Positions 3,205-62,412 of a stretch of DNA of 64,000 nt are shown one piece after another. Both the position numbers and the translations under genes were made by a program. Position 1 is the first letter of the stretch; every line of letters starts with the position of its first letter. The notes below the pieces were generated by a model. That model did no database searches. It saw only the letters and a program-made list of their open reading frames with translations, and had not been told where the DNA came from. This DNA is from a virus, in the UHGV virus genome UHGV-0060833; one strand, given 5' to 3'.

Positions 3205-3284
3205 GTCATCACCAATTATTTGCTCTGGTTTTCGTTATTTTAACTTAGGTTACTTGTGGTCTACATGGTGTTAACTATTAAATA

Positions 3285-3301
3285 ATTGCTCTAATAAATA
3301 T
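3285..3301 (+). promoter_or_regulatory. C1 repressor operator-like site
   Basis: ATTGCTCTAATAAATAT, 15/17 to ATTGCTCTAATAAATTT; sits ~70 bp upstream of the uhr-hrdC-dmt block. Confidence 0.7.
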
Positions 3302-3372
3302 TGTTTTTTATGTCGTGTTTTCGGTACCATTCAGCCATCGCCCTTCAATGGGTATTTGTTTGGAGTCGTCAG

Positions 3373-3657
3373 ATGCAGATGGAGCTAATAAGCCGCAAAG
3401 AGTTCGATAGCCGTGTAACCAGCGGTGAACTCGACAACTTGCAGGCTATCAAGGTGAAAGAAGGCTTTTGCCTCATTGGGAATCAGAGCGGAACAAATCG
3501 CGTTTTTATGCTTCGCCGTACGGATTTGAAGCCATTTGTCTGGAAGAACGAAATTGGTCCCAGCTCATACGCTCAAACTAGGGGGTGCCTCAACCTGGCC
3601 TTTTTCTACAAAAACGAGCTTTCTGTGGTTGATATTCAAGGGTTACAACATGTTTAA
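3373..3657 (+). CDS. Small protein upstream of the rdgC homolog (P1 uhr position)
   Basis: GGAG 7 nt before ATG at 3373; overlaps hrdC start by 8 nt. Confidence 0.45.
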
Positions 3658-4555
3658 GCACTGGAAAAACATTACTATTTTTAAACTTTCTCGTGAGGCG
3701 GATCTGACCGACTTGGAAGATAAAAAGAAAATGATCCTTTTCACGCCATGCGGTAGTCAGGATATGGCCAAGTTCGGTTTTGTATCTCCATTTGGTGATA
3801 ATTCCGAAGTTATCGCTATGCATGGAAATGGTTTTATCCTTGTTGAAGCAAAGCGCGAAACAAAAATTCTTCCCCCGCCGGTTATCCAGCGAGCTATTCA
3901 AGAAAAAATTGAAAAACTCGAGCAAGAACAAGCGCGTAAACTGAAGAAAACAGAGAAGGACTCCCTGAAAGACGAAGTTCTGCATTCTCTTCTGCCACGG
4001 GCTTTTTCAAAGTTCTCTGTTATCCAGGCGATCTACGACGGTTCAACTAAACGTATCTATATCAATGCCAGCGCGCGGCAGGCAGAGGATATGCTCGCGC
4101 TTATGCGTAAATCTCTGGGTTCTCTTCCTGTTGTTCCCCTAAGTGTTGAAAATCCCATTGAATTAACGCTGACCGACTGGGTACGTGATGGTAGTGCTCC
4201 ACAGGGATTTCAAATGGGGGATGCGGCAGAACTTAAGGCAGTGCTTGAGGATGGCGGTATTGCCCGAGTGAAAAAGCAGGACTTGGGAAGTGATGAAATA
4301 TCCACACACCTGGAAGCTGGCAAGCTCGTCACTAAGTTGGCACTCGACTGGCAGAACCGCATTAAATTTACACTGGACCATAACTTCAGCCTTACCAGCG
4401 TCAAATTTGCGGATGAATTGCTTGAGCAGAACGCTGATATTGATAGTGAAGATGTTGCGCAGCGACTGGACGCAGATTTCTTCCTGTTGACCAGTGAAAT
4501 TTCGTGCCTGGTTGATGCTCTGGTAAATGCCCTTGGTGGAGAGGCTAAGCAGTGA
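3650..4555 (+). CDS. hrdC: RdgC-like recombination-associated protein
   Basis: [14 protein letters not shown]..., [48 protein letters not shown] and later blocks match E. coli RdgC along the whole length. Confidence 0.9.
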
Positions 4556-6816
4556 AAGAGCTGTGCTATGGATCTGTTTGCAGTGGAATTGAAGCCGCGA
4601 GTATTGCCTGGGAACCGTTGGGTATGCGTCCGGCGTGGTTTGCTGAAATCGAGCCTTTTCCATCTGCCGTTCTTGCGCACCGCTGGCCCCATGTCGCCAA
4701 CCTTGGCGACATGACAAAACTTGCCAAAAAAGTCCTGGCTGGGGAAATCGAATCCCCTGATGTGCTCGTCGGGGGAACACCTTGTCAGGCATTCAGTATC
4801 GCTGGATTACGTGGTGGGCTTGATGATGAGCGTGGCGCGCTAACTTTAAAGTATGTGGAGCTTGCAAATGCAATTGACGACAAACGGGCTGAGTCATTTC
4901 TCAAACCAGCCGTTATCGTCTGGGAAAATGTCCCAGGAGTCTTGTCATCGGCAGATAACGCCTTCGGATGTTTCCTTGCCGGATTGGCTGGAGAAGATGC
5001 GCCATTTGAACCAGGTGATCGACCTGAATCAGGAAAAAGTAACGCGTTCTGGCGGTGGGATGGCAAAACCGGTTGCCATGCTCCAAAGTGGCCGCAGTGT
5101 GGTTGTATTTATGGACCGCAGCGAAAGGTGGCCTGGAGAATCCTTGATGCCCAATACTTCGGAGTGGCACAACGACGCCGACGCGTGTTTGTTGTCGCAA
5201 GTGCTCGAACAGACCTCGATCCCGCAACGGTACTTTTTGAGTTCGAAGGCGTGCGCCGGGATATTGCGCCGAGCCGAAAAAAGAAGGAAATCGCTTCCGC
5301 CATTATTGCAAATGGCGCTGCAATCAGTGGCGAAAGCCTAAATCCATGCCTACATGCTGACATGCCACCCGGTATGAAATCGACGAAAGCCGTAAACGCT
5401 TTCAGGATGGCAGCATTTGGGGAATATATTGACGATGAAACCGCATCGACAGTAAAGGCAAGAGATTTTAAAGATGCCACTGACCTTGCCGTTTTTAGCA
5501 GCACAGGAGCAGCTTTTTGGTCAGAAGGGCATGGTACATTGCGGGCACGTGAGCAAGAAAGCCATGAGCATCTTGTTACATTGGCTTTTCCTGAGCGTAT
5601 GAGCGGTACACAACATGCTGCAACTAAGAATACTTCACCATCTCTAATGGCTAAAAATCCAACAGCTGTTTGCTATGAAGTAAGAAACGCAGAAGTAGCT
5701 GTCCGCCGTCTTACCCCTGTCGAATGTGAAAGGCTGCAAGGTTTTCCTGATGGGCATACGTTGATCCCGACGGAAAAGCGTAAAAAAGTTAGTTCAGATG
5801 AACTGGCATATCTTCGCAATCACTATCCAGATTTAAGCGAAGAAGAGGCCGTGATGCTTGCAGCTGACGGACCGCGTTACAAAGCGATCGGCAATAGTAT
5901 GGCAATACCAGTAATGCGCTGGATTGGCGATCGGATTACTAAGGCCGTATGTCGGCAGAAAGAAGGAAGTGAAACAAAAGAGCGAAAAGTTAAACCAGCG
6001 GCAGAATTCGAACGGTCCATATTCAAATGGGCTGGTGGAAAATTTGGTGTTCTGGAACAAATCTTTCGCTATTTGCCAGAAGGGAAGCGCCTGATTGAAC
6101 CTTTCGTTGGTGGCGGAGCTGTCTTCATGAATGCCGGATACCAGGAAAATCTGCTAAATGATGTGAATGCTGACCTGATTAACTTTTACAAGACTCTGCA
6201 ACGCGAGGCGCATTCACTTATCACTCTGGCACATCGTTTTTTCCTGGACTACAACACCCAGGAGGGATACTTGGCAGTACGGAATGCGTTTAACAAACAA
6301 GTCTATGATGATTTACATCGCGCAGCGGCGTTTTTGTTCCTGAACCGACATTGTTTTAACGGATTGACGCGTTACAACCAGGCCGGTGAGTTCAATGTCG
6401 GTTATGGGAAGTATAAAACTCCGTATTTCCCATTACAGGAGATGGAAGCCTTCCTCGGTGCGGAAGGGCGGTCTGAGTTTGTATGCGGTGATTTTGCAGC
6501 GGTGATTGAAGCTGCCGGAGAAGGAGATGTCATCTTTTGCGATCCGCCGTATGAACCGCTCCCCAATACAGAGGGGTTCACGAACTATTCCGGTCATGAC
6601 TTTAAGTTTGAAGAGCAAAAACGCCTGGTGTCTCTGTTGACGGATGCTCATCGTCGAGGTGCAAAGGTTCTCATTACTAACAGTGGCGCGCCAAACATCA
6701 GAGAGCTTTATCATGACAGTGGCTTCAGAGTGGAACCTCTTTTTGCCAGACGTTCTGTGTCTTGTAAGGGGGACACTCGAGGTGTAGCTCATGACGTTTT
6801 GGGTATATTGCTCTAA
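4552..6816 (+). CDS. dmt: Bifunctional DNA methyltransferase: N-terminal C5-cytosine MTase fused to C-terminal Dam-like N6-adenine MTase
   Basis: N-terminal GGTPCQAFS (PCQ), VIVWENVPG (ENV), [10 protein letters not shown]; C-terminal [10 protein letters not shown] and CDPPYEP (DPPY). 754 aa; start overlaps hrdC stop. Confidence 0.8.
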
Positions 6817-48356: not shown

Positions 48357-51087
<2,731 letters not shown>

Positions 51088-51098
51088 CCACCAAAAAT

Positions 51099-51120
51099 AA
51101 CCCCGGCGGCTGCCGGGGTT
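51099..51120. terminator. Bidirectional terminator between pro and the lyz operon
   Basis: AACCCCGGC-GGCT-GCCGGGGTT hairpin with A/T runs on both sides. Confidence 0.6.
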
Positions 51121-51131
51121 ATCGTTAACTA

Positions 51132-51386
51132 TTATCGCTTTCGCCTGCGTGCCATATATTTGCGCACCGCGCGGCGTGGACAATCTGAAGCGGTTTCTTT
51201 CTGCTGCATCAATCTCGCAGCCATGCTCAAAAATGTCAGGCACAGCCGAAGCCCGGCATACAATAGCGGTTCCAGTGGCCACGTTTCATTAAGCACATAT
51301 ACCGCCATGAAAATCGAGTCGAAAACTATCGCTGCCAGCGATAACTTCATTGTCGAAAGTCTGCGGAGCTGCCGGAGTTTATTCAT
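51132..51386 (-). CDS. Small two-TM membrane protein downstream of lyz (holin/antiholin-like topology)
   Basis: 84 aa; two hydrophobic segments (LSLAAIVFDSIFMAVYVL, LLYAGLRLCLTFLSMAA) and strongly basic C-terminus; start overlaps lyz stop. Confidence 0.45.
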   Translation of the reverse strand: MNKLRQLRRLSTMKLSLAAIVFDSIFMAVYVLNETWPLEPLLYAGLRLCLTFLSMAARLMQQKETASDCPRRAVRKYMARRRKR

Positions 51387-51936
51387 TGACCAGTCCCGTC
51401 AGGCAAAGCTGGCGTTCTTTTTCACGGCGAATCTTTAAACCTCGCAGGGGCACGCCGTTACTGTTCACAAAATCAGGGAGATGGTTACACATATTCACCC
51501 ATTCCCCTTTCTGCGCCCACTTGTGGATGGACGTTTCGACTCGCATGCCTCGCGCTTTGCTGTAGTAGGTCCGTAAGCTATTGCATCCCATATTGAATGC
51601 CGCGCTTGTCATTGCACTAAAGGCATTATCGGGCATGTCTTTGCCCCGGAAGTGCTGATTAATACAGCGTTCAGCGATCAGGATATTCTTTTCCCAATCA
51701 GCGGCGATTTGCTGGTCGGTTTTTCGCACACCCGGCGTTACCCCGTGTGTATTACCGATCCCGTCAGTCCATACCCCCGCCGGGCACATGTATGGATCAC
51801 GTCGGCAACCTTCAGCGTTACCAATCAGCTCAAGCCCCGCCTGGTTGGTTCGCACATTGCCATTACCCATTACGATGGTAATCATCACCGCGATAGCGCA
51901 AATTGCACCGCCTCCTGCGGCTGTTTTTCCCTTCAT
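51379..51936 (-). CDS. lyz: SAR endolysin (T4-lysozyme-like muramidase with N-terminal signal-anchor-release domain)
   Basis: 185 aa; SAR segment AAGGGAICAIAVMITIVMGNG; catalytic block IGNAEGCRRDPYMCPAGVWTDGIGNTHG. Confidence 0.85.
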   Translation of the reverse strand: MKGKTAAGGGAICAIAVMITIVMGNGNVRTNQAGLELIGNAEGCRRDPYMCPAGVWTDGIGNTHGVTPGVRKTDQQIAADWEKNILIAERCINQHFRGKDMPDNAFSAMTSAAFNMGCNSLRTYYSKARGMRVETSIHKWAQKGEWVNMCNHLPDFVNSNGVPLRGLKIRREKERQLCLTGLVNE

Positions 51937-52068
51937 AAAGACCTCATAAGCGAATTTTTACGCTCCAGGACAAACACCCATTCACAGCCAATACCGACTG
52001 ACTCGATCCCTTTAGAAGGCACAGGATAATGCAAATCACTTGTTAGCTACGTTTCAAAGATATACATT

Positions 52069-52085
52069 ATTGCTCTAATCATTTT
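52069..52085 (+). promoter_or_regulatory. C1 operator-like site upstream of ssb
   Basis: ATTGCTCTAATCATTTT, 20 bp before ssb start. Confidence 0.65.
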
Positions 52086-52593: not shown

Positions 52594-52795
52594 AGTTTAT
52601 GAGTAAAAAACGACTGAAAGAAAAGCGGTGGTCAAGACGCCGACAAAAGCACGAACTCGCAAAAAAACGCCAAAGTTGGCAATGGCACGCGCTTTTCACG
52701 AAAAGAACACCCCGAGATATTGCTTTCGCTGGTGGGAAAACATTCCTGACCCACCTGAAGGCGCAATACATCAGTTTTTAAGCAGAGAAAAGACT

Positions 52796-53590
52796 ATGAC
52801 AGCACAAAATACTAAAACAATTCAATACCGCCTGCGTAATGGCCAGAGTGTCGAAGTGACCATCAATAATGATGGTGTACCTGGCGAAAAGGTTTCGATC
52901 TCTGATCTGGCTATCGAAAAAACCATCATGTGCCACCTTGGCTTTACTGAAGAAGTGAGCAAAAAGCATGGTGTAGCTATCTGGCGCACAATGGATACTG
53001 GCATGCGCAGATTCATTACTGCTCGTACCCCTGGTATGACCATGATGGACCTCATACAGATTGCGCCGCTGTTTGAGTGTGAACCTTTGGATGTATTCAG
53101 CAATCCAGCTATCTGCCAGCAGTTATATGGTGAGATGAAACTCGCGGTTACCCCCATTGTGCTGCATGAAGGATCGCTTGCTGGCGTATGGAAAGTAGAG
53201 CGAATTTCAAGCTACATGCCATTCCACATCCATGTCAACGGCGTAATCGCAGGTGAAAATCAACCTGTTTCAGTTACAAAGTCAGACCTCAATCGCGCAA
53301 TTCTTGAAGCAAGTTGTCGAGTTATCGGCCTGGGCAAACAGTCTTATGTTTCCTTCCCGGCTGGTCCTGAAGGCCCGGCAGAAATTCTGATTATGGATGC
53401 TGATCTGCTCTGGCAAATACAGTTTCTGATTGGCAAAAGCATCATCCGCGCTGAAGAACTCGATCAGTACATTACCTGCACGATGACGGATGAAGTCAAA
53501 AGTGTGGCTATAGCCAATGCCCGGAACCTGTGTCGTGCTGCATTAACAGAACCGCAAGAAAACATTCCAGAAGAAACAGAAAGTGACTAA
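52796..53590 (+). CDS. Hypothetical protein downstream of ssb
   Basis: 264 aa from MTAQNTKTIQYRL; an upstream GTG/ATG start inside ORF 52628..53590 is possible. Confidence 0.5.
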   Translation: MTAQNTKTIQYRLRNGQSVEVTINNDGVPGEKVSISDLAIEKTIMCHLGFTEEVSKKHGVAIWRTMDTGMRRFITARTPGMTMMDLIQIAPLFECEPLDVFSNPAICQQLYGEMKLAVTPIVLHEGSLAGVWKVERISSYMPFHIHVNGVIAGENQPVSVTKSDLNRAILEASCRVIGLGKQSYVSFPAGPEGPAEILIMDADLLWQIQFLIGKSIIRAEELDQYITCTMTDEVKSVAIANARNLCRAALTEPQENIPEETESD

Positions 53591-53614: not shown

Positions 53615-53787
53615 AACTCCACGTCAAATGGCCAATTGTTATGTCAGCTAGCAGTTAAAGCGCCTAGTCATCATCTTTTAAAGAAGTCTTTTTAACTTAC
53701 CTAAATTAGTGACACCTCCCGTTTTGCTTGCTATTGTACGCATTCATGAATCTATTCATTAATCTATTCACAATAGTAATTAAAACT

Positions 53788-55092
53788 ATGGCTATACATG
53801 CAACAACAATCCGTAATTTGCTCAATCAAGGTCCTATGACACCAAGACAATTGGTTGAAAGACTAAGTGTTAGCCAACCAACGATATCTAGAGCATTAAG
53901 AGATCTTGGTGATGAAATCGTTAGGATCGGAAATGGAAGATCTATTCAATATGCTTTACGAGACTCTTTTAGAGGATTCGAATCAGTCCCCATTTATCGT
54001 ATAACTGAAGAGGGGTGTATTTGCGTTCTTGGTACTCTCATTCCGGTGAGGCCAGAAGGCTATGTTATGGTTGAGGAAGGGAAAAATAACAGGCATAGCG
54101 ATGGGTTACCTTGGTGGTTATTTGATATGCGTCCACAAGGCTTCCTTGGAAGAGCATATGCATCAGCATATGCTCTTGAACTTAACCTTCCCTCAAATCC
54201 AGAGCAATGGTCAGATACTGACGTGATCAAAGCCTTACTTAAGCATGGGCATGATGTTGTTGGTAATTTGTTAATTGGAGAGCAAGCACGCACGCATTTT
54301 TTAGAGATGCAGCCTCCTGTTCCTGTTAATCGTGAAAGTGAATATCCTGTATTAGCTTTAGCTGCTGGTGAAGGTGATGTGCCCGGTTCATCTGCTGGAG
54401 GTGAACAACCCAAATTTTGTACTTTCACAGAGCGTGGACATGTATTAGTGAAATTCTCTGCGCCTAACGACACCCCTATAAGTGAGCGTTGGAGAGATCT
54501 CTTGTTTGCTGAACATCTCGCATTAAAAGTTCTGGGGGTAGAAACAGAAGTTTTTGATTATAACGGTCAGAGATTCTTGGAAATTCCCCGATTTGATCGT
54601 GTTGGTCAACTAGGTCGGGTAGGTGTATTCTCACTTCGTGCACTTGATGCAGAATTTGTTGGGAATGCAAGAGCAACATGGCCCTTGCTGGTTAAAGAGT
54701 TGGTAAAAAATAAGTGCGTCCATCCTGATGCGATTATTATAGCAACAAGGCTATGGTCTTTTGGTTTGCTAATAGGCAATACCGATATGCATAATGGTAA
54801 CCTATCGTTTATTAGTAGCCACGGACGCCCATATCATATTGCTCCAGCCTATGACATGTTACCTATGGGTTTTGCTCCACGCTCTGGGGGAGCAATATCT
54901 AATGAGCTTAGAAAAACAGCACTACCAGACTTTGTAAGTCGAAAAATATGGGATGAATCTCTTGAATTGGCTGAAAAATTTTATGCATTGGCCTGTGAGT
55001 CCGACAAATTCTCAGCTAACTTTACTCCATGTTTAGAAGCGCTACGCATCCACCTAGATGATTGTAAGATACGCATAGCCCGCCTGGCATAA
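53788..55092 (+). CDS. HipA-like Ser/Thr kinase with N-terminal winged-HTH (YjjJ/HipH-like)
   Basis: HTH MTPRQLVERLSVSQPTISRALRDL; HipA-like GDVPGSSAGGEQPKF and catalytic-loop-like IGNTDMHNGNLSF; by-eye GC lower than flanks. Start may be 53746 or 53728. Confidence 0.75.
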   Translation: MAIHATTIRNLLNQGPMTPRQLVERLSVSQPTISRALRDLGDEIVRIGNGRSIQYALRDSFRGFESVPIYRITEEGCICVLGTLIPVRPEGYVMVEEGKNNRHSDGLPWWLFDMRPQGFLGRAYASAYALELNLPSNPEQWSDTDVIKALLKHGHDVVGNLLIGEQARTHFLEMQPPVPVNRESEYPVLALAAGEGDVPGSSAGGEQPKFCTFTERGHVLVKFSAPNDTPISERWRDLLFAEHLALKVLGVETEVFDYNGQRFLEIPRFDRVGQLGRVGVFSLRALDAEFVGNARATWPLLVKELVKNKCVHPDAIIIATRLWSFGLLIGNTDMHNGNLSFISSHGRPYHIAPAYDMLPMGFAPRSGGAISNELRKTALPDFVSRKIWDESLELAEKFYALACESDKFSANFTPCLEALRIHLDDCKIRIARLA

Positions 55093-58421: not shown

Positions 58422-58787
58422 TTACTCTGCCTCTTTAATGTTGGCGGCTATCCATGCCGCCGTGTGCTGTTTAACCTGGTCCAGATCGATGTATGTGCCA
58501 ACATATTGACTCAAGTCCTGCAACGTACCGATAAATGCATCGGTGCTCTGATCGACGAATTTATCAGCCAGGAAATCAGCAACCAGTTTTGGCACACCAT
58601 CATGTACCGAAGGTTGTTTTTCCTCGCCACTACTGCCGCCGGACACACCGTACCCCATCTGTTGCATGATCTGGTCAATTTCATCGCTGATATCCAGCAA
58701 CTCCATGCCACTCGCGGTAGCCGCTTTGGACATCAGAGCATCCAACTTATCGCTGAGATCCATTAACTCAATAGCTGATAGTGTCAT
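58422..58787 (-). CDS. ddrA: Small acidic darA-operon protein (P1 ddrA position)
   Basis: 121-aa ORF overlapping darA stop. Confidence 0.55.
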   Translation of the reverse strand: MTLSAIELMDLSDKLDALMSKAATASGMELLDISDEIDQIMQQMGYGVSGGSSGEEKQPSVHDGVPKLVADFLADKFVDQSTDAFIGTLQDLSQYVGTYIDLDQVKQHTAAWIAANIKEAE

Positions 58788-60703
58788 GCCGCTACCCCCG
58801 CTTTCTGGATTGCTACCAACAGATCAGCCAGGTGGCGAGCTGCGCCGTTAACCAGCTCTTCGTTTTCCTCAAAACGTCCGGCAGCCTGAAGGGCTGCAAT
58901 CGCTTCCCGGACATTGCCCCGGGCGTTACGGATCTCCGCCATGTCAGTGCTTTGTATATCCATCACGTTATTGAGATATTCAATGGCTTTATTAGCCTCT
59001 GCATCTGCTTCGCTAACCGTTTCATCAGGCTGTGCCGGGGCCGGTTCTGGCTGAGTAATCTCACCGACTTCGGCCTGCAATGCATTGATCATGCTCTGCA
59101 CCATTTTCTCGGTGCCAGCGCCCCCAGGAAACGCAATATTGGGGAAAGTTTTTTGAAACTGAGTTTTCAGCATTACGCGGAACTCGTCTGGTGAGCTGGT
59201 GGCCAGCTCCAGAGCTTTTTGTGCATATTTGCCAAACGGACCATTAGTAAGTGTCTTCGCCAGGAAGTCGAAAGAATCCTCGCGAGGCAATAACTTCAGG
59301 TCGTACTCACTCATTTGCTGATCAGAAAGCGGGGTATCGTAAGTAGCAATGCCGTAGCGTGCATATTCATAATACGGGTCACCTTCATCAGGGCGCGGCA
59401 GAATTGCTTTGTTACCTTCAGGTATTGCGCCAGGGGCCGCCGGACGCATTTGCAGGGCATATCGATATGCACCTACAGAGACTTCTGGTTCAGGCGAAGA
59501 GCTACCGGTATCCTCCGCTGGTTCAGGTTCGACGTTTTCCGGTTTATGTTCTTCTGGTTGGACCAGGTATTCCGATACATTACCCGCTTTATAGGCTTTA
59601 AACAGCTTGCCGATCGCATCTGCCATGTCCACACCCTGTATGGATTTAGCCTTGATCATGTATACGCTGCCATCCGGATCGGTTAACTGGATATACCCTT
59701 CGCCGCCCCCAATGAATTGCTTCATTGATGCTCCATTACTGAGCGTCACTTCCCCGTTCATATGCATACGATTTTTGATACTGGCAAGGCGATCCGTCAG
59801 CGCGCGCGAGTGCCCACCAGTCATCCCCGCTGGATCAATGGTATCGCGCCCACCTGTGCGATTGAGCTGATCAATCTCCGTCTGCAAACGCTCATTCTCT
59901 TCATAAAGAGAATCCGCTTCCGATGCAACAGCGTTAATTTTCTGCTCCAGATCTACCTTCTGCCCTTCTACCGCTGCCACCTGATCCGCGAGGTCGCTCA
60001 TGGCATCCTCTTTCTGGTCACTGTCAGCCTGTAGTTGGGTTATTTCATCAACCAGGGCTTTTTTCTTCTTCTGCGCACGCTGGAATTTTGCCGAGTTTTT
60101 CTCTGCAAGGTTGGCAAGTTTCATGGTGACCTGCGCCAGCGTCATATCACGTCCACTCATCGGAGCAACGGTGTGAGTAACGTCTTTTTTATTCAGTAAG
60201 AACTGGAAAGCAACCAGCGTATCGCTATTGGTGATCCGGTTTTCCGCTGTCGGGCTATGAAACAGAATGCTGATAGTCTGACCATCACTGAGCGGAATAA
60301 TGGCTGGCAGGACCGGCAGCCCGTTAACGTTACGTGCCCGGCCAATTTCAGCACCGCCGATCGCGCGCGCGCCGCTCTGGGCCACCTCCCCCGTTTTATC
60401 ACTCCCCGCAGAGATTCCGGTACCATTCAGCTTCTGGTTCAATGCCCGGACAAATGCCTGCATGGTCCGGTGTAACTGCAAACGAGTAGAACTAATCGCC
60501 TCCAGTAAATCCGTAGCACACCAGTGGATCGGCGTGTCATAGAAGAACGTAGCCTCGATTTCCTCCAGGGTGTTGGATTCCGTCATCAGATAGCGGTCCT
60601 CACCGGCCATTAATGCGCGATATTCATCATCAGTCACTGGCGGGGGAAGCACGTCAAGCCCAGGCTTGATCGTCACCCCTTTATTGATATTTAACTGTTC
60701 CAT
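58784..60703 (-). CDS. darA: DarA antirestriction / capsid-internal protein precursor
   Basis: 639 aa, matching recalled DarA size; shares a lysine-rich block with the upstream hdf-like gene; embedded in the lydA-lydB operon. Confidence 0.7.
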   Translation of the reverse strand: MEQLNINKGVTIKPGLDVLPPPVTDDEYRALMAGEDRYLMTESNTLEEIEATFFYDTPIHWCATDLLEAISSTRLQLHRTMQAFVRALNQKLNGTGISAGSDKTGEVAQSGARAIGGAEIGRARNVNGLPVLPAIIPLSDGQTISILFHSPTAENRITNSDTLVAFQFLLNKKDVTHTVAPMSGRDMTLAQVTMKLANLAEKNSAKFQRAQKKKKALVDEITQLQADSDQKEDAMSDLADQVAAVEGQKVDLEQKINAVASEADSLYEENERLQTEIDQLNRTGGRDTIDPAGMTGGHSRALTDRLASIKNRMHMNGEVTLSNGASMKQFIGGGEGYIQLTDPDGSVYMIKAKSIQGVDMADAIGKLFKAYKAGNVSEYLVQPEEHKPENVEPEPAEDTGSSSPEPEVSVGAYRYALQMRPAAPGAIPEGNKAILPRPDEGDPYYEYARYGIATYDTPLSDQQMSEYDLKLLPREDSFDFLAKTLTNGPFGKYAQKALELATSSPDEFRVMLKTQFQKTFPNIAFPGGAGTEKMVQSMINALQAEVGEITQPEPAPAQPDETVSEADAEANKAIEYLNNVMDIQSTDMAEIRNARGNVREAIAALQAAGRFEENEELVNGAARHLADLLVAIQKAGVAA

Positions 60704-60704
60704 G

Positions 60705-61316
60705 TTAATTTCCTGCTTTCAGTTGCTTAAGACGACGTTTGAGTTCGCCATTCCGTGCCTTTTCGTTATTGAGTCGGCCCGTCTCCTTATCCAGCTTCGC
60801 CCGCAAATCAGTGATCTGCTGTTGATTGAAAGACACCGAATTCTGCGCGGACTTATAAGCGGCAACCACCTGAGCATTCCGCTGTTTTGCTTCTTGCAGG
60901 CGCTGAAAGTTGGATTTAACTGCCGGTTTCTTGTCTACCGGATTGGCAACACGCTTCGCTTTGGCGATCAGTGATTTCTGGAATTTTGCGGAGTTTTTGC
61001 GGGCCGCCTGTCCCATGACGGTACCAAGCGTCTTGATATCCGGCGACTGAGCGTTAGGAATAGCTTTTCCATTCAGTTTCACAGACGATATATCGCCAGT
61101 ATCGTTTACCTGTATGGCAAGAATTTGTCCGTCGTTAAGAACCAGCTTTGCGGTTTTAACTTTAACGCCATCTTTCGTTGTTGCGCGGTTGCTGGAGTCA
61201 ACCTCAATTACCGTAACACCGGTTTTATTGATCGCCGCGATAAGGGATTTCAGCCCCTTTTCATTAACCTGGTCAAAATCGACCGTTGCATACTTATTTT
61301 TCGTCATCTGACACAT
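60705..61316 (-). CDS. hdf: Homolog of DarA fragment
   Basis: 203 aa; ARKNSAKFQKSLIAKAKR resembles DarA AEKNSAKFQRAQKKKKAL; directly upstream of darA. Confidence 0.6.
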   Translation of the reverse strand: MCQMTKNKYATVDFDQVNEKGLKSLIAAINKTGVTVIEVDSSNRATTKDGVKVKTAKLVLNDGQILAIQVNDTGDISSVKLNGKAIPNAQSPDIKTLGTVMGQAARKNSAKFQKSLIAKAKRVANPVDKKPAVKSNFQRLQEAKQRNAQVVAAYKSAQNSVSFNQQQITDLRAKLDKETGRLNNEKARNGELKRRLKQLKAGN

Positions 61317-61737
61317 CCTGTGCGAGATTTATTACGTAACTTCTGCGGATTTGCTGAGTAACAGGGAAAATCCGATACAACGGGTTAATGAACGAGTCGC
61401 CATGCGTAACCATGATGTTGAAATGCCACAGTCGCTCTCCTTTACCCATATATTCAGTGGGTATGTACAACCATTCACTGTTTTCGCCCTGTTCAGCCGA
61501 CGTCAGACAACGTTGTTCACCTTCAATCACTGTCGTCGGCTTCTGAACATCGCGGATCCAATATCTGACCGTTGCGCCGCGCAAAAACGGGAATTTAGAC
61601 CGGTACTTGAACGGCACCCGGATGAAACCCGGTTTAATTTCCACATCACCAAGTTCTAAATGCGTGATGTCCTTGCGTTTTAGCAAATAGCGATCGGCTA
61701 AGGCTAACGCAAGAACGCATACACCCCAGCCAATCAT
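61294..61737 (-). CDS. lydB: Putative antiholin (P1 lydB position)
   Basis: 147-aa ORF overlapping the holin-like gene stop by 4 nt. Confidence 0.55.
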   Translation of the reverse strand: MIGWGVCVLALALADRYLLKRKDITHLELGDVEIKPGFIRVPFKYRSKFPFLRGATVRYWIRDVQKPTTVIEGEQRCLTSAEQGENSEWLYIPTEYMGKGERLWHFNIMVTHGDSFINPLYRIFPVTQQIRRSYVINLAQDVSDDEK

Positions 61738-62063
61738 TTCCCGCCTCCCTTTTTCACCAAACTTGTAAGAACATTCAGAATGCTATCGATATTCACTCGT
61801 TTCATCCCTGAAATCACCTCATGACCGTTATTGCTGGCTATCGTTACCATTAAGTACGTAATTGATAACTCCCAGCCCTCGTGTTGCCCCAATAGGTACG
61901 CCACCGCGCCAGCTGTCACTGCAACAAAGATCTCCGTAACCAATCCCAACAAATTGCCAGACTGGCGACCGTCTCGGACATCCATCAGGAACGTGCCTAT
62001 CCCACCAATTACTGAAAGCAGGAGCGCAATAGCAACTGGAGCTAATTCCTGTGTGTCAAGCAC
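61734..62063 (-). CDS. lydA: Holin-like membrane protein
   Basis: 109 aa; hydrophobic segments VAIALLLSVIGGIGTFLM and IFVAVTAGAVAYLLG; first gene of the operon. Confidence 0.6.
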   Translation of the reverse strand: MLDTQELAPVAIALLLSVIGGIGTFLMDVRDGRQSGNLLGLVTEIFVAVTAGAVAYLLGQHEGWELSITYLMVTIASNNGHEVISGMKRVNIDSILNVLTSLVKKGGGK

Positions 62064-62130
62064 AAGTTCCCTCCTACGTTGTCAGGAGGTAATGGTATGC
62101 AAAGTAACTTCTCAACCGGTCATTTGTTGC

Positions 62131-62412
62131 TTAAGAGGCATTTCTATTGAGGTACGAATCGATAATCCTTTGTAACTTTTCAAGAATGAGCCTGTTATTG
62201 ATGCTGCAAATAATAGTCACGCAATTCTGAAGACTTTCATCCATACCCTTATATTCCGCGAAATACATGCCTATAAAGCCTGCAAGTACGGCAGCAATAC
62301 ACTCGGCCATCAATTGCCTGCATGACGCTTCGTAACGTTTTTCACGAACCCCATTCAGAAACGAATGCACCCCGCCAAGGATGGAGAGGAGCATTATTGT
62401 GAAATCACACAT
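62131..62412 (-). CDS. Small holin-like membrane protein
   Basis: 93 aa; hydrophobic segments TIMLLSILGGVHSF and AAVLAGFIGMYF. Confidence 0.45.
   Translation of the reverse strand: MCDFTIMLLSILGGVHSFLNGVREKRYEASCRQLMAECIAAVLAGFIGMYFAEYKGMDESLQNCVTIICSINNRLILEKLQRIIDSYLNRNAS

Follow-up and report, generated by a model that had tools for sequence, protein, structure and literature searches.

The minus-strand open reading frame (ORF) at positions 51132..51386 of the virus genome UHGV-0060833 (the whole 64,000-nucleotide stretch analyzed is hereafter the window) is, judged by its sequence, lydD of a P1-like phage-plasmid, and its product is very probably a pinholin that cooperates with the SAR endolysin Lyz. 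A preliminary description had singled out this ORF as an 84-aa, two-transmembrane gene with a basic tail that overlaps lyz, and the ORF listing, the 8-nt overlap, the Kyte-Doolittle profile and the Lys/Arg counts all agree with that reading. None of this is new: lydD itself, the holin-like character of its product and its role as a pinholin with Lyz are already published and in GenBank. As P1-like elements go, the window is ordinary; lydD matters little as a discovery, and the outcomes are mainly curatorial. What novelty is left lies in a modest link between LydD and the Pfam family DUF7940 and in the evidence against lydE as a gene.

Identity of the ORF with lydD of P1 and P7

Across 1.1 kb around lydD, the window shares 98.5% identity with phage P1 and 97.7% with P7. 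The ORF begins with ATG and encodes 84 amino acids followed by a stop. Its product, MNKLRQLRRLSTMKLSLAAIVFDSIFMAVYVLNETWPLEPLLYAGLRLCLTFLSMAARLMQQKETASDCPRRAVRKYMARRRKR, matches P1 LydD (AAQ13988) at 83 of 84 residues, the sole change being K83R in the tail; the gene is thus conserved in P1. Seven nucleotides differ between the two genes, six of them silently, and the Lyz protein of the window is identical to P1 Lyz. LydD also matches PHROG 21930 (“holin”) over its full length (residues 1–84, E = 2.3e-58), and shares with the orthologue group of P1 LydD both this full-length match and the position downstream of, and overlapping, lyz.

The annotation status in P1 proves equally clear, with lydD labeled “putative holin” in the GenBank records of both P1 (AAQ13988) and P7 (AAQ07492). 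In the P1 record, lydD follows lyz, converges with pro and has lydE embedded out of frame; the P7 record annotates lydD and omits lydE. The 8-nt lyz/lydD overlap, the flanking pro and ssb genes, the late promoter and the terminator are all arranged in P1 and P7 as in the window. Among further records (OP279344, MH160767, ON470615, ON470617, OR339795 and MH422554), the region is unannotated or carries the names LydE, “putative antiholin” or “hypothetical protein,” and in some records RefSeq calls the neighboring pro “tail fiber protein.” These inconsistencies for lydD and pro are worth correcting.

Organization of the lyz-lydD operon

The first gene of the operon is lyz (51379..51936, minus strand), which encodes a 185-aa SAR endolysin matching Pfam Phage_lysozyme (E = 2e-22). 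The Lyz N terminus carries a Gly/Ala-rich hydrophobic stretch of the SAR type at residues 6–24 (KD19 2.07), and P1 Lyz is the prototypical SAR endolysin (PMC9025707). The lyz stop codon and the lydD ATG overlap by 8 nt (ATGAATAA), such that lyz ends GTC AAT GAA TAA and lydD starts ATG AAT AAA. The late promoter LPlyz (52023..52041, minus strand), whose position was mapped from the P1 annotation (20969–20987, plus an offset of 31054), comprises the −22 box AAGTGATTT and the −10 element TATCCT. The upstream box, AACAAG(T/C)GATT, is kept in six of six aligned sequences, including three divergent P1-like elements. The core of the C1 operator Ossb (ATTAGAGCAATAA), in the lyz-ssb region at 52041..52075, is also conserved in P1-like elements, and the intergenic sequence around these two motifs has otherwise largely diverged.

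At the other end of the operon, a GC-rich hairpin followed by UUAUUUUU spans 51093..51123 (minus strand), 9 nt past the lydD stop and also directly after the convergent pro gene. It is absent from the output of the promoter/terminator scanner and was seen instead by RNA folding, with a folding energy of −25.2 kcal/mol (z −3.2) that none of 200 shuffled sequences equaled. We infer that this hairpin is the intrinsic terminator of the lyz-lydD operon. In P1 and the window, it is all that lies between lydD and pro. In 10 divergent relatives (L083–L092), the lyz-lydD synteny is as in P1 and P7 and the downstream genes are different: lydD and pro are separated by a gene with a ProQ/FinO domain and by a RepL-like gene (∼3233–4785 in each locus), the ProQ-like gene being convergent with lydD and overlapping its 3′ end by ∼23 nt.

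Met1 of lydD is preceded by a weak Shine-Dalgarno sequence (GGGA), with a duplex energy of −4.3 kcal/mol as compared with −6.3 kcal/mol for lyz. A stop/start overlap of 4–8 nt between the two genes is conserved, together with the late-promoter box, in P1-like elements that are 75–83% identical. Considered together, the weak Shine-Dalgarno sequence and the conserved overlap suggest that translation of lydD is probably coupled to that of lyz.

lydD is the coding frame in a region of overlapping ORFs

The region is crowded with many overlapping ORFs of similar length, which raises the question of whether lydD is a chance open frame, or whether the active product comes from one of the frames that overlap it. 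One of these is lydE (51067..51282, minus strand), a 71-aa ORF with a GTG start that lies out of frame inside lydD and carries the label “putative antiholin” in P1. The other is an antisense ORF of 92 aa on the plus strand (51160..51438), which was tested separately because it has third codon positions in common with lydD.

The sample of the locus comprised 92 related sequences (P1, P7, 80 contigs from IMG/VR and another 10 from P1-like elements that are more divergent) and yielded 49 distinct lydD nucleotide haplotypes, the majority with the same protein. Variable sites fall 30, 15 and 65 times on the first, second and third codon positions of lydD, respectively (7, 1 and 25 times among close haplotypes alone), and pN/pS in this frame, relative to the relatives that are 75–83% identical, is 0.16–0.21. 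These values indicate purifying selection on the lydD frame. On the codon positions of lydE, the substitutions are distributed 40/20/8, mostly at the first position. Premature stops interrupt the lydE frame in P7 and in several of the close relatives, and no divergent relative is free of them. The frame ends at a stop codon (51067..51069) past the terminator hairpin, so that lydE runs through the hairpin, which is a further reason to doubt it. Experimentally, lydE has no lysis phenotype, and lysis by a lyz-lydD plasmid is unchanged with or without it (PMC9025707). The lydE annotation is very likely spurious, and lydE is probably not a real gene. Its product as an embedded antiholin or an Rz1-like lipoprotein was rejected, given that it has no hydrophobic segment and, on reading the sequence, no proper lipobox, that the frame is broken in relatives and that there is no phenotype.

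The antisense ORF was likewise rejected. Its start codon is lost in many relatives, divergent relatives have internal stops, and its pN/pS exceeds the value for the sense frame. The lydD frame alone is open with low pN/pS, and the phenotype arises from expression in the sense orientation. An origin in a chance or overlapping frame is thereby already refuted, with a probability close to nil; lydD alone behaves as a coding frame and is a real gene rather than a chance ORF.

Predicted topology of LydD

LydD has two hydrophobic stretches, at residues 15–33 and 41–59, with 19-residue Kyte-Doolittle maxima of 1.89 and 1.42, respectively. Five Lys/Arg residues lie within residues 1–14, N-terminal to the first stretch, and the last 22 residues (63–84), which form a poly-Arg/Lys tail, include 10 Lys/Arg as against 2 acidic residues. 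The loop between the helices, NETWPLEP, is acidic. By the positive-inside rule, LydD would be an N-in/C-in hairpin with this loop in the periplasm. An AlphaFold2 model, made from a shallow alignment and of low confidence (pLDDT 65.7), consists of two long helices (residues 3–35 and 40–83). LydD thus has one feature of the pinholin class, that of a small membrane protein with at least one transmembrane domain (TMD) that is encoded together with a SAR endolysin. It matches no holin family in Pfam at E up to 1.

Genetic evidence for a pinholin working with Lyz

The genetics of P1 lysis has been published (Bednarek et al., 2022, PMC9025707). Plasmids carrying lyz together with lydD (and lydE) give faster and more complete lysis than lyz alone, and lydD mutants lyse late, so that both deletion and co-expression bear out the effect on lysis timing by which the preliminary description had proposed to judge the gene. 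A lydA lydC mutant forms plaques, and a lydA lydD double mutant forms none. When the canonical endolysin R of lambda takes the place of lyz, LydD makes no contribution, and cells supplied with R and LydD from two plasmids are not lysed. Expressed alone, LydD lowers CFU and arrests growth. Wild-type P1 lysis proceeds by shortening and rounding of the cells, the morphology of the pinholin/SAR-endolysin type, and switches to the polar blowout of canonical holin lysis in a lydC lydD double mutant; this evidence comes from the double mutant and not from a lydD single mutant. In liquid culture of E. coli, LydA acts as the main holin, with LydD accessory, and a lydA mutant does not lyse despite an intact lydD. 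[quoted passage not shown] In later work from that laboratory, lydD is listed as “pinholin” (PMC10067587), and a CRISPRi screen found both lydD and lydE to be non-essential (PMC10695390), which for lydD fits an accessory role.

The pinholin mechanism of LydD is therefore well supported by genetics, with nanometer-scale holes and depolarization read from the phenotypes. The proposal that the ORF encodes a class-II holin or pinholin working with a SAR endolysin gains support from these experiments and from the “putative holin” label in P1 and P7. The stronger suggestion, that it is the actual partner of Lyz, stands only in part: LydD does cooperate with Lyz as a pinholin, but since a lydA mutant fails to lyse in liquid and lydD is non-essential, it is one of three partners, accessory to LydA in liquid culture, and not “the” partner.

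The other two partners are encoded where the preliminary description had placed the canonical holin and antiholin genes, about 10–11 kb from lydD and adjoining darA (58784..60703). All three genes of this group (61294..62412) are on the minus strand: lydB (61294..61737; Pfam PF16084, LydB, E = 2e-103), the antiholin of LydA; lydA (61734..62063; Pfam PF16083, “LydA holin”), the canonical holin of the dar operon; and lydC (62131..62412; also PF16083), a second holin of the LydA family.

We propose the following sequence of events. Lying second in the late lyz operon, lydD would be transcribed from LPlyz and probably translated by coupling to lyz across the ATGAATAA overlap. In the inner membrane, LydD would form a hairpin of two helices, its basic termini both facing the cytoplasm. 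At a critical level, it would make small lesions that depolarize the membrane; depolarization would in turn release and activate the membrane-tethered Lyz. The lesions would be too small for a soluble endolysin to pass. The canonical holins LydA and LydC, whose genes are unlinked to lydD, would act in parallel with LydD, the weight of each being set by host and growth conditions. Two features count against a pinholin: the second TMD is weakly hydrophobic (KD 1.42), and it contains an invariant arginine, Arg47.

Alternatives to a pinholin

The only rival worth keeping is a releasin-like mechanism, in which LydD would extract the SAR domain of Lyz by direct contact and without depolarization, as gp25 of phage Mu does for the endolysin gp22. 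Such a mechanism exists for SAR endolysins, and in Mu it depends on two lysines in the short cytoplasmic N terminus of the endolysin (PMC9239132); P1 Lyz, which starts MKGKT, has two lysines in the corresponding segment. The tight coupling of lydD to lyz, recurring with SAR lysozymes in three other lineages, is compatible with direct contact, the invariant charged residues D23 and R47 within the helices are a possible interaction surface, and failure to support a canonical endolysin would be expected of a releasin as well. However, the loss of CFU and the growth arrest caused by LydD alone are what a membrane-damaging pinholin would be expected to produce, whereas Mu is presented as holin-less and gp25 as a releasin rather than a hole-former (PMC9239132). 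The proteins also differ in build. Both are small membrane proteins that promote release of a SAR endolysin, but Mu gp25 is described as a membrane-tethered cytoplasmic protein of family DUF2730 with a single N-terminal TMD (PMC9239132), whereas in LydD two helices forming a TMD hairpin extend across nearly the whole protein, and LydD has no DUF2730 match in Pfam. LydD thus has neither of the features that define the releasin, and we consider this mechanism improbable.

Less likely still is a mainly regulatory role, with LydD serving as an antiholin or timer of LydA and LydC rather than as an effector itself. Its basic N terminus does resemble that of an engineered antiholin: S21 68, the pinholin of phage 21, becomes a pinholin antagonist once two positive charges are added at its N terminus, and in LydD four precede the first TMD (PMC9025707). 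Some records (MH422554) use the label “putative antiholin.” Loss of lydD, however, delays lysis and does not advance it, and this delay largely refutes the regulator. Moreover, LydD and Lyz are enough for lysis from plasmids and for plaques of the lydA lydC mutant, and heteromers with LydA or LydC are not suggested by any similarity in sequence. A dual-start holin/antiholin pair from Met1 and Met13 is also unsupported: Met13-Lys14 is invariant, yet no Shine-Dalgarno sequence precedes Met13 (duplex energy 0). The pinholin remains our preferred reading of LydD.

Comparison with other small lysis proteins

The closest functional counterpart is S21 68 of phage 21, which works with the SAR endolysin R21 and is, like LydD, a small protein with two TMDs and a basic C terminus (PMC9025707). 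For both, the gene sits in the operon of a SAR endolysin, the protein is lethal, and a canonical endolysin is not released (PMC9025707). Nevertheless, LydD and S21 68 have no detectable sequence similarity (hhalign probability 0.2%, with an S21 query 100% identical to phage 21), and lydD is downstream of its endolysin gene whereas the S21 gene is upstream. The four to five positive charges at the LydD N terminus would block the externalization of the first TMD that S21 68 needs, and the second TMD has no glycine zipper, unlike that of S21 68 (PMC9025707). LydD also has no supported dual-start motif of the S21 68/71 kind. In sum, the features that mark the S21 68/71 family, namely homology, a weakly charged N terminus and a dual-start antiholin, are lacking in LydD. 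Because there is no detectable similarity and the N terminus is strongly basic, LydD cannot work exactly like S21 68; it works like S21 68 in kind but is outside the S21 family.

LydA and LydC of P1 are, like LydD, small two-TMD lysis proteins that cooperate with Lyz. No BLASTP alignment links LydD to either at E up to 100, and LydD has no match to PF16083 (holin superfamily III), whereas LydA and LydC both match it. The functional difference runs in parallel, with a canonical endolysin being supported by LydA and LydC but not by LydD (PMC9025707).

LydD appears to be a divergent branch of DUF7940

LydD scores 22.8 bits (E = 1.4e-4) against DUF7940 (PF25612), under the gathering cut-off of 27 bits. 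A profile built from P1-like LydD proteins only, searched against 1.84 billion representative proteins, retrieved a dozen distant relatives of 54–82 aa (E = 8e-18 to 4e-4). Of 14 aligned family members, 13 match PF25612, with a best E of 5e-13, and one member (P0014) finds P1 lydD in return by tblastn (E = 4e-7). At profile level, homology of LydD to bona fide DUF7940 members is significant, and LydD appears to be a divergent branch of this family. The alignment has an invariant core of A19, D23, E34, Y43, R47, T51, A57 and R58, in which the Asp (D23) is inside helix 1 and the Arg (R47) inside helix 2. In contrast, the 20-residue basic tail is found in the P1 clade only and is absent from the other members. 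The family profile has no sequence match in the PDB at E up to 10, and our literature search found no paper mentioning DUF7940.

The genomic settings of the family vary. Two metagenomic contigs (L095 and L096), which also carry Baseplate_J and wedge genes, encode, in this order, a SAR-type lysozyme with an Ala/Gly-rich N terminus, a DUF7940 protein and an Rz-like i-spanin, in whose gene a lipobox ORF is embedded; the same arrangement occurs in L099, on a contig that also carries a tail-spike gene. In Aeromonas phage 56, the gp04 lysozyme is followed by gp03 (DUF7940) and then by the Rz-like spanins gp02 and gp01. In four N4-like contigs, DUF7940 is instead the first gene of the early region (L093, 3563–3772; L094, 3005–3214; L097, 4001–4207; L098, 2367–2573), and no called neighbor of it matches a lysozyme family. 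This gene lies directly before homologs of N4 Gp1 and Gp2 and is divergent from a block with a terminase homolog and Sequestin/Acb2-type anti-defense genes. Proximity of DUF7940 to a SAR endolysin is therefore recurrent but not universal, and the early-region copies suggest a non-lysis use of the two-helix fold. Given these copies away from a lysozyme and the absence of the tail in the wider family, the function of the family may exceed lysis.

In two unrelated DUF7940 cassettes, a protein of 148–192 aa is encoded directly upstream of the SAR lysozyme (L095, 2866–3444; L100, 832–1278, gp05 of Aeromonas phage 56). The two proteins are homologous, with a single C-terminal TMD (…VLYGAI(V/L)VALFW…), and could be a further lysis factor, e.g., a holin or a regulator.

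A fuller reading of these relationships, which we hold tentatively and rate somewhat below an even chance, is that LydD is the first experimentally characterized member of DUF7940, as a sequence-distinct pinholin family triggered in a manner unlike S21 68. If so, DUF7940 would recur in the order SAR endolysin, DUF7940, spanins across unrelated phages (P1-like elements, the group of Aeromonas phage 56 and two or more metagenomic lineages), as a pinholin family built around an invariant intramembrane Asp in the first TMD and an invariant Arg in the second. The different triggering would follow from the basic N terminus, which should hold the first TMD in the membrane. The N4-like early copies would then be a second use of the fold, e.g., depolarization for superinfection exclusion. 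LydD thus offers a provisional functional lead for a family listed in Pfam as of unknown function, with the caveat that some members are outside lysis cassettes.

A possible ancestral ORF after the isaA homolog

Elsewhere in the window, a plus-strand ORF of 454 aa (53728..55092) follows the isaA homolog (52628..53590). It combines an N-terminal winged-helix HTH (HTH_5/MarR) with a HipA_C kinase-like domain. In the gene table of P1, isaA and ddrB are separated by IS1 (insB, insA), isaB and hxr. The 454-aa ORF may be the uninterrupted ancestral gene, encoding a HipA-like toxin fused to its own DNA-binding domain.
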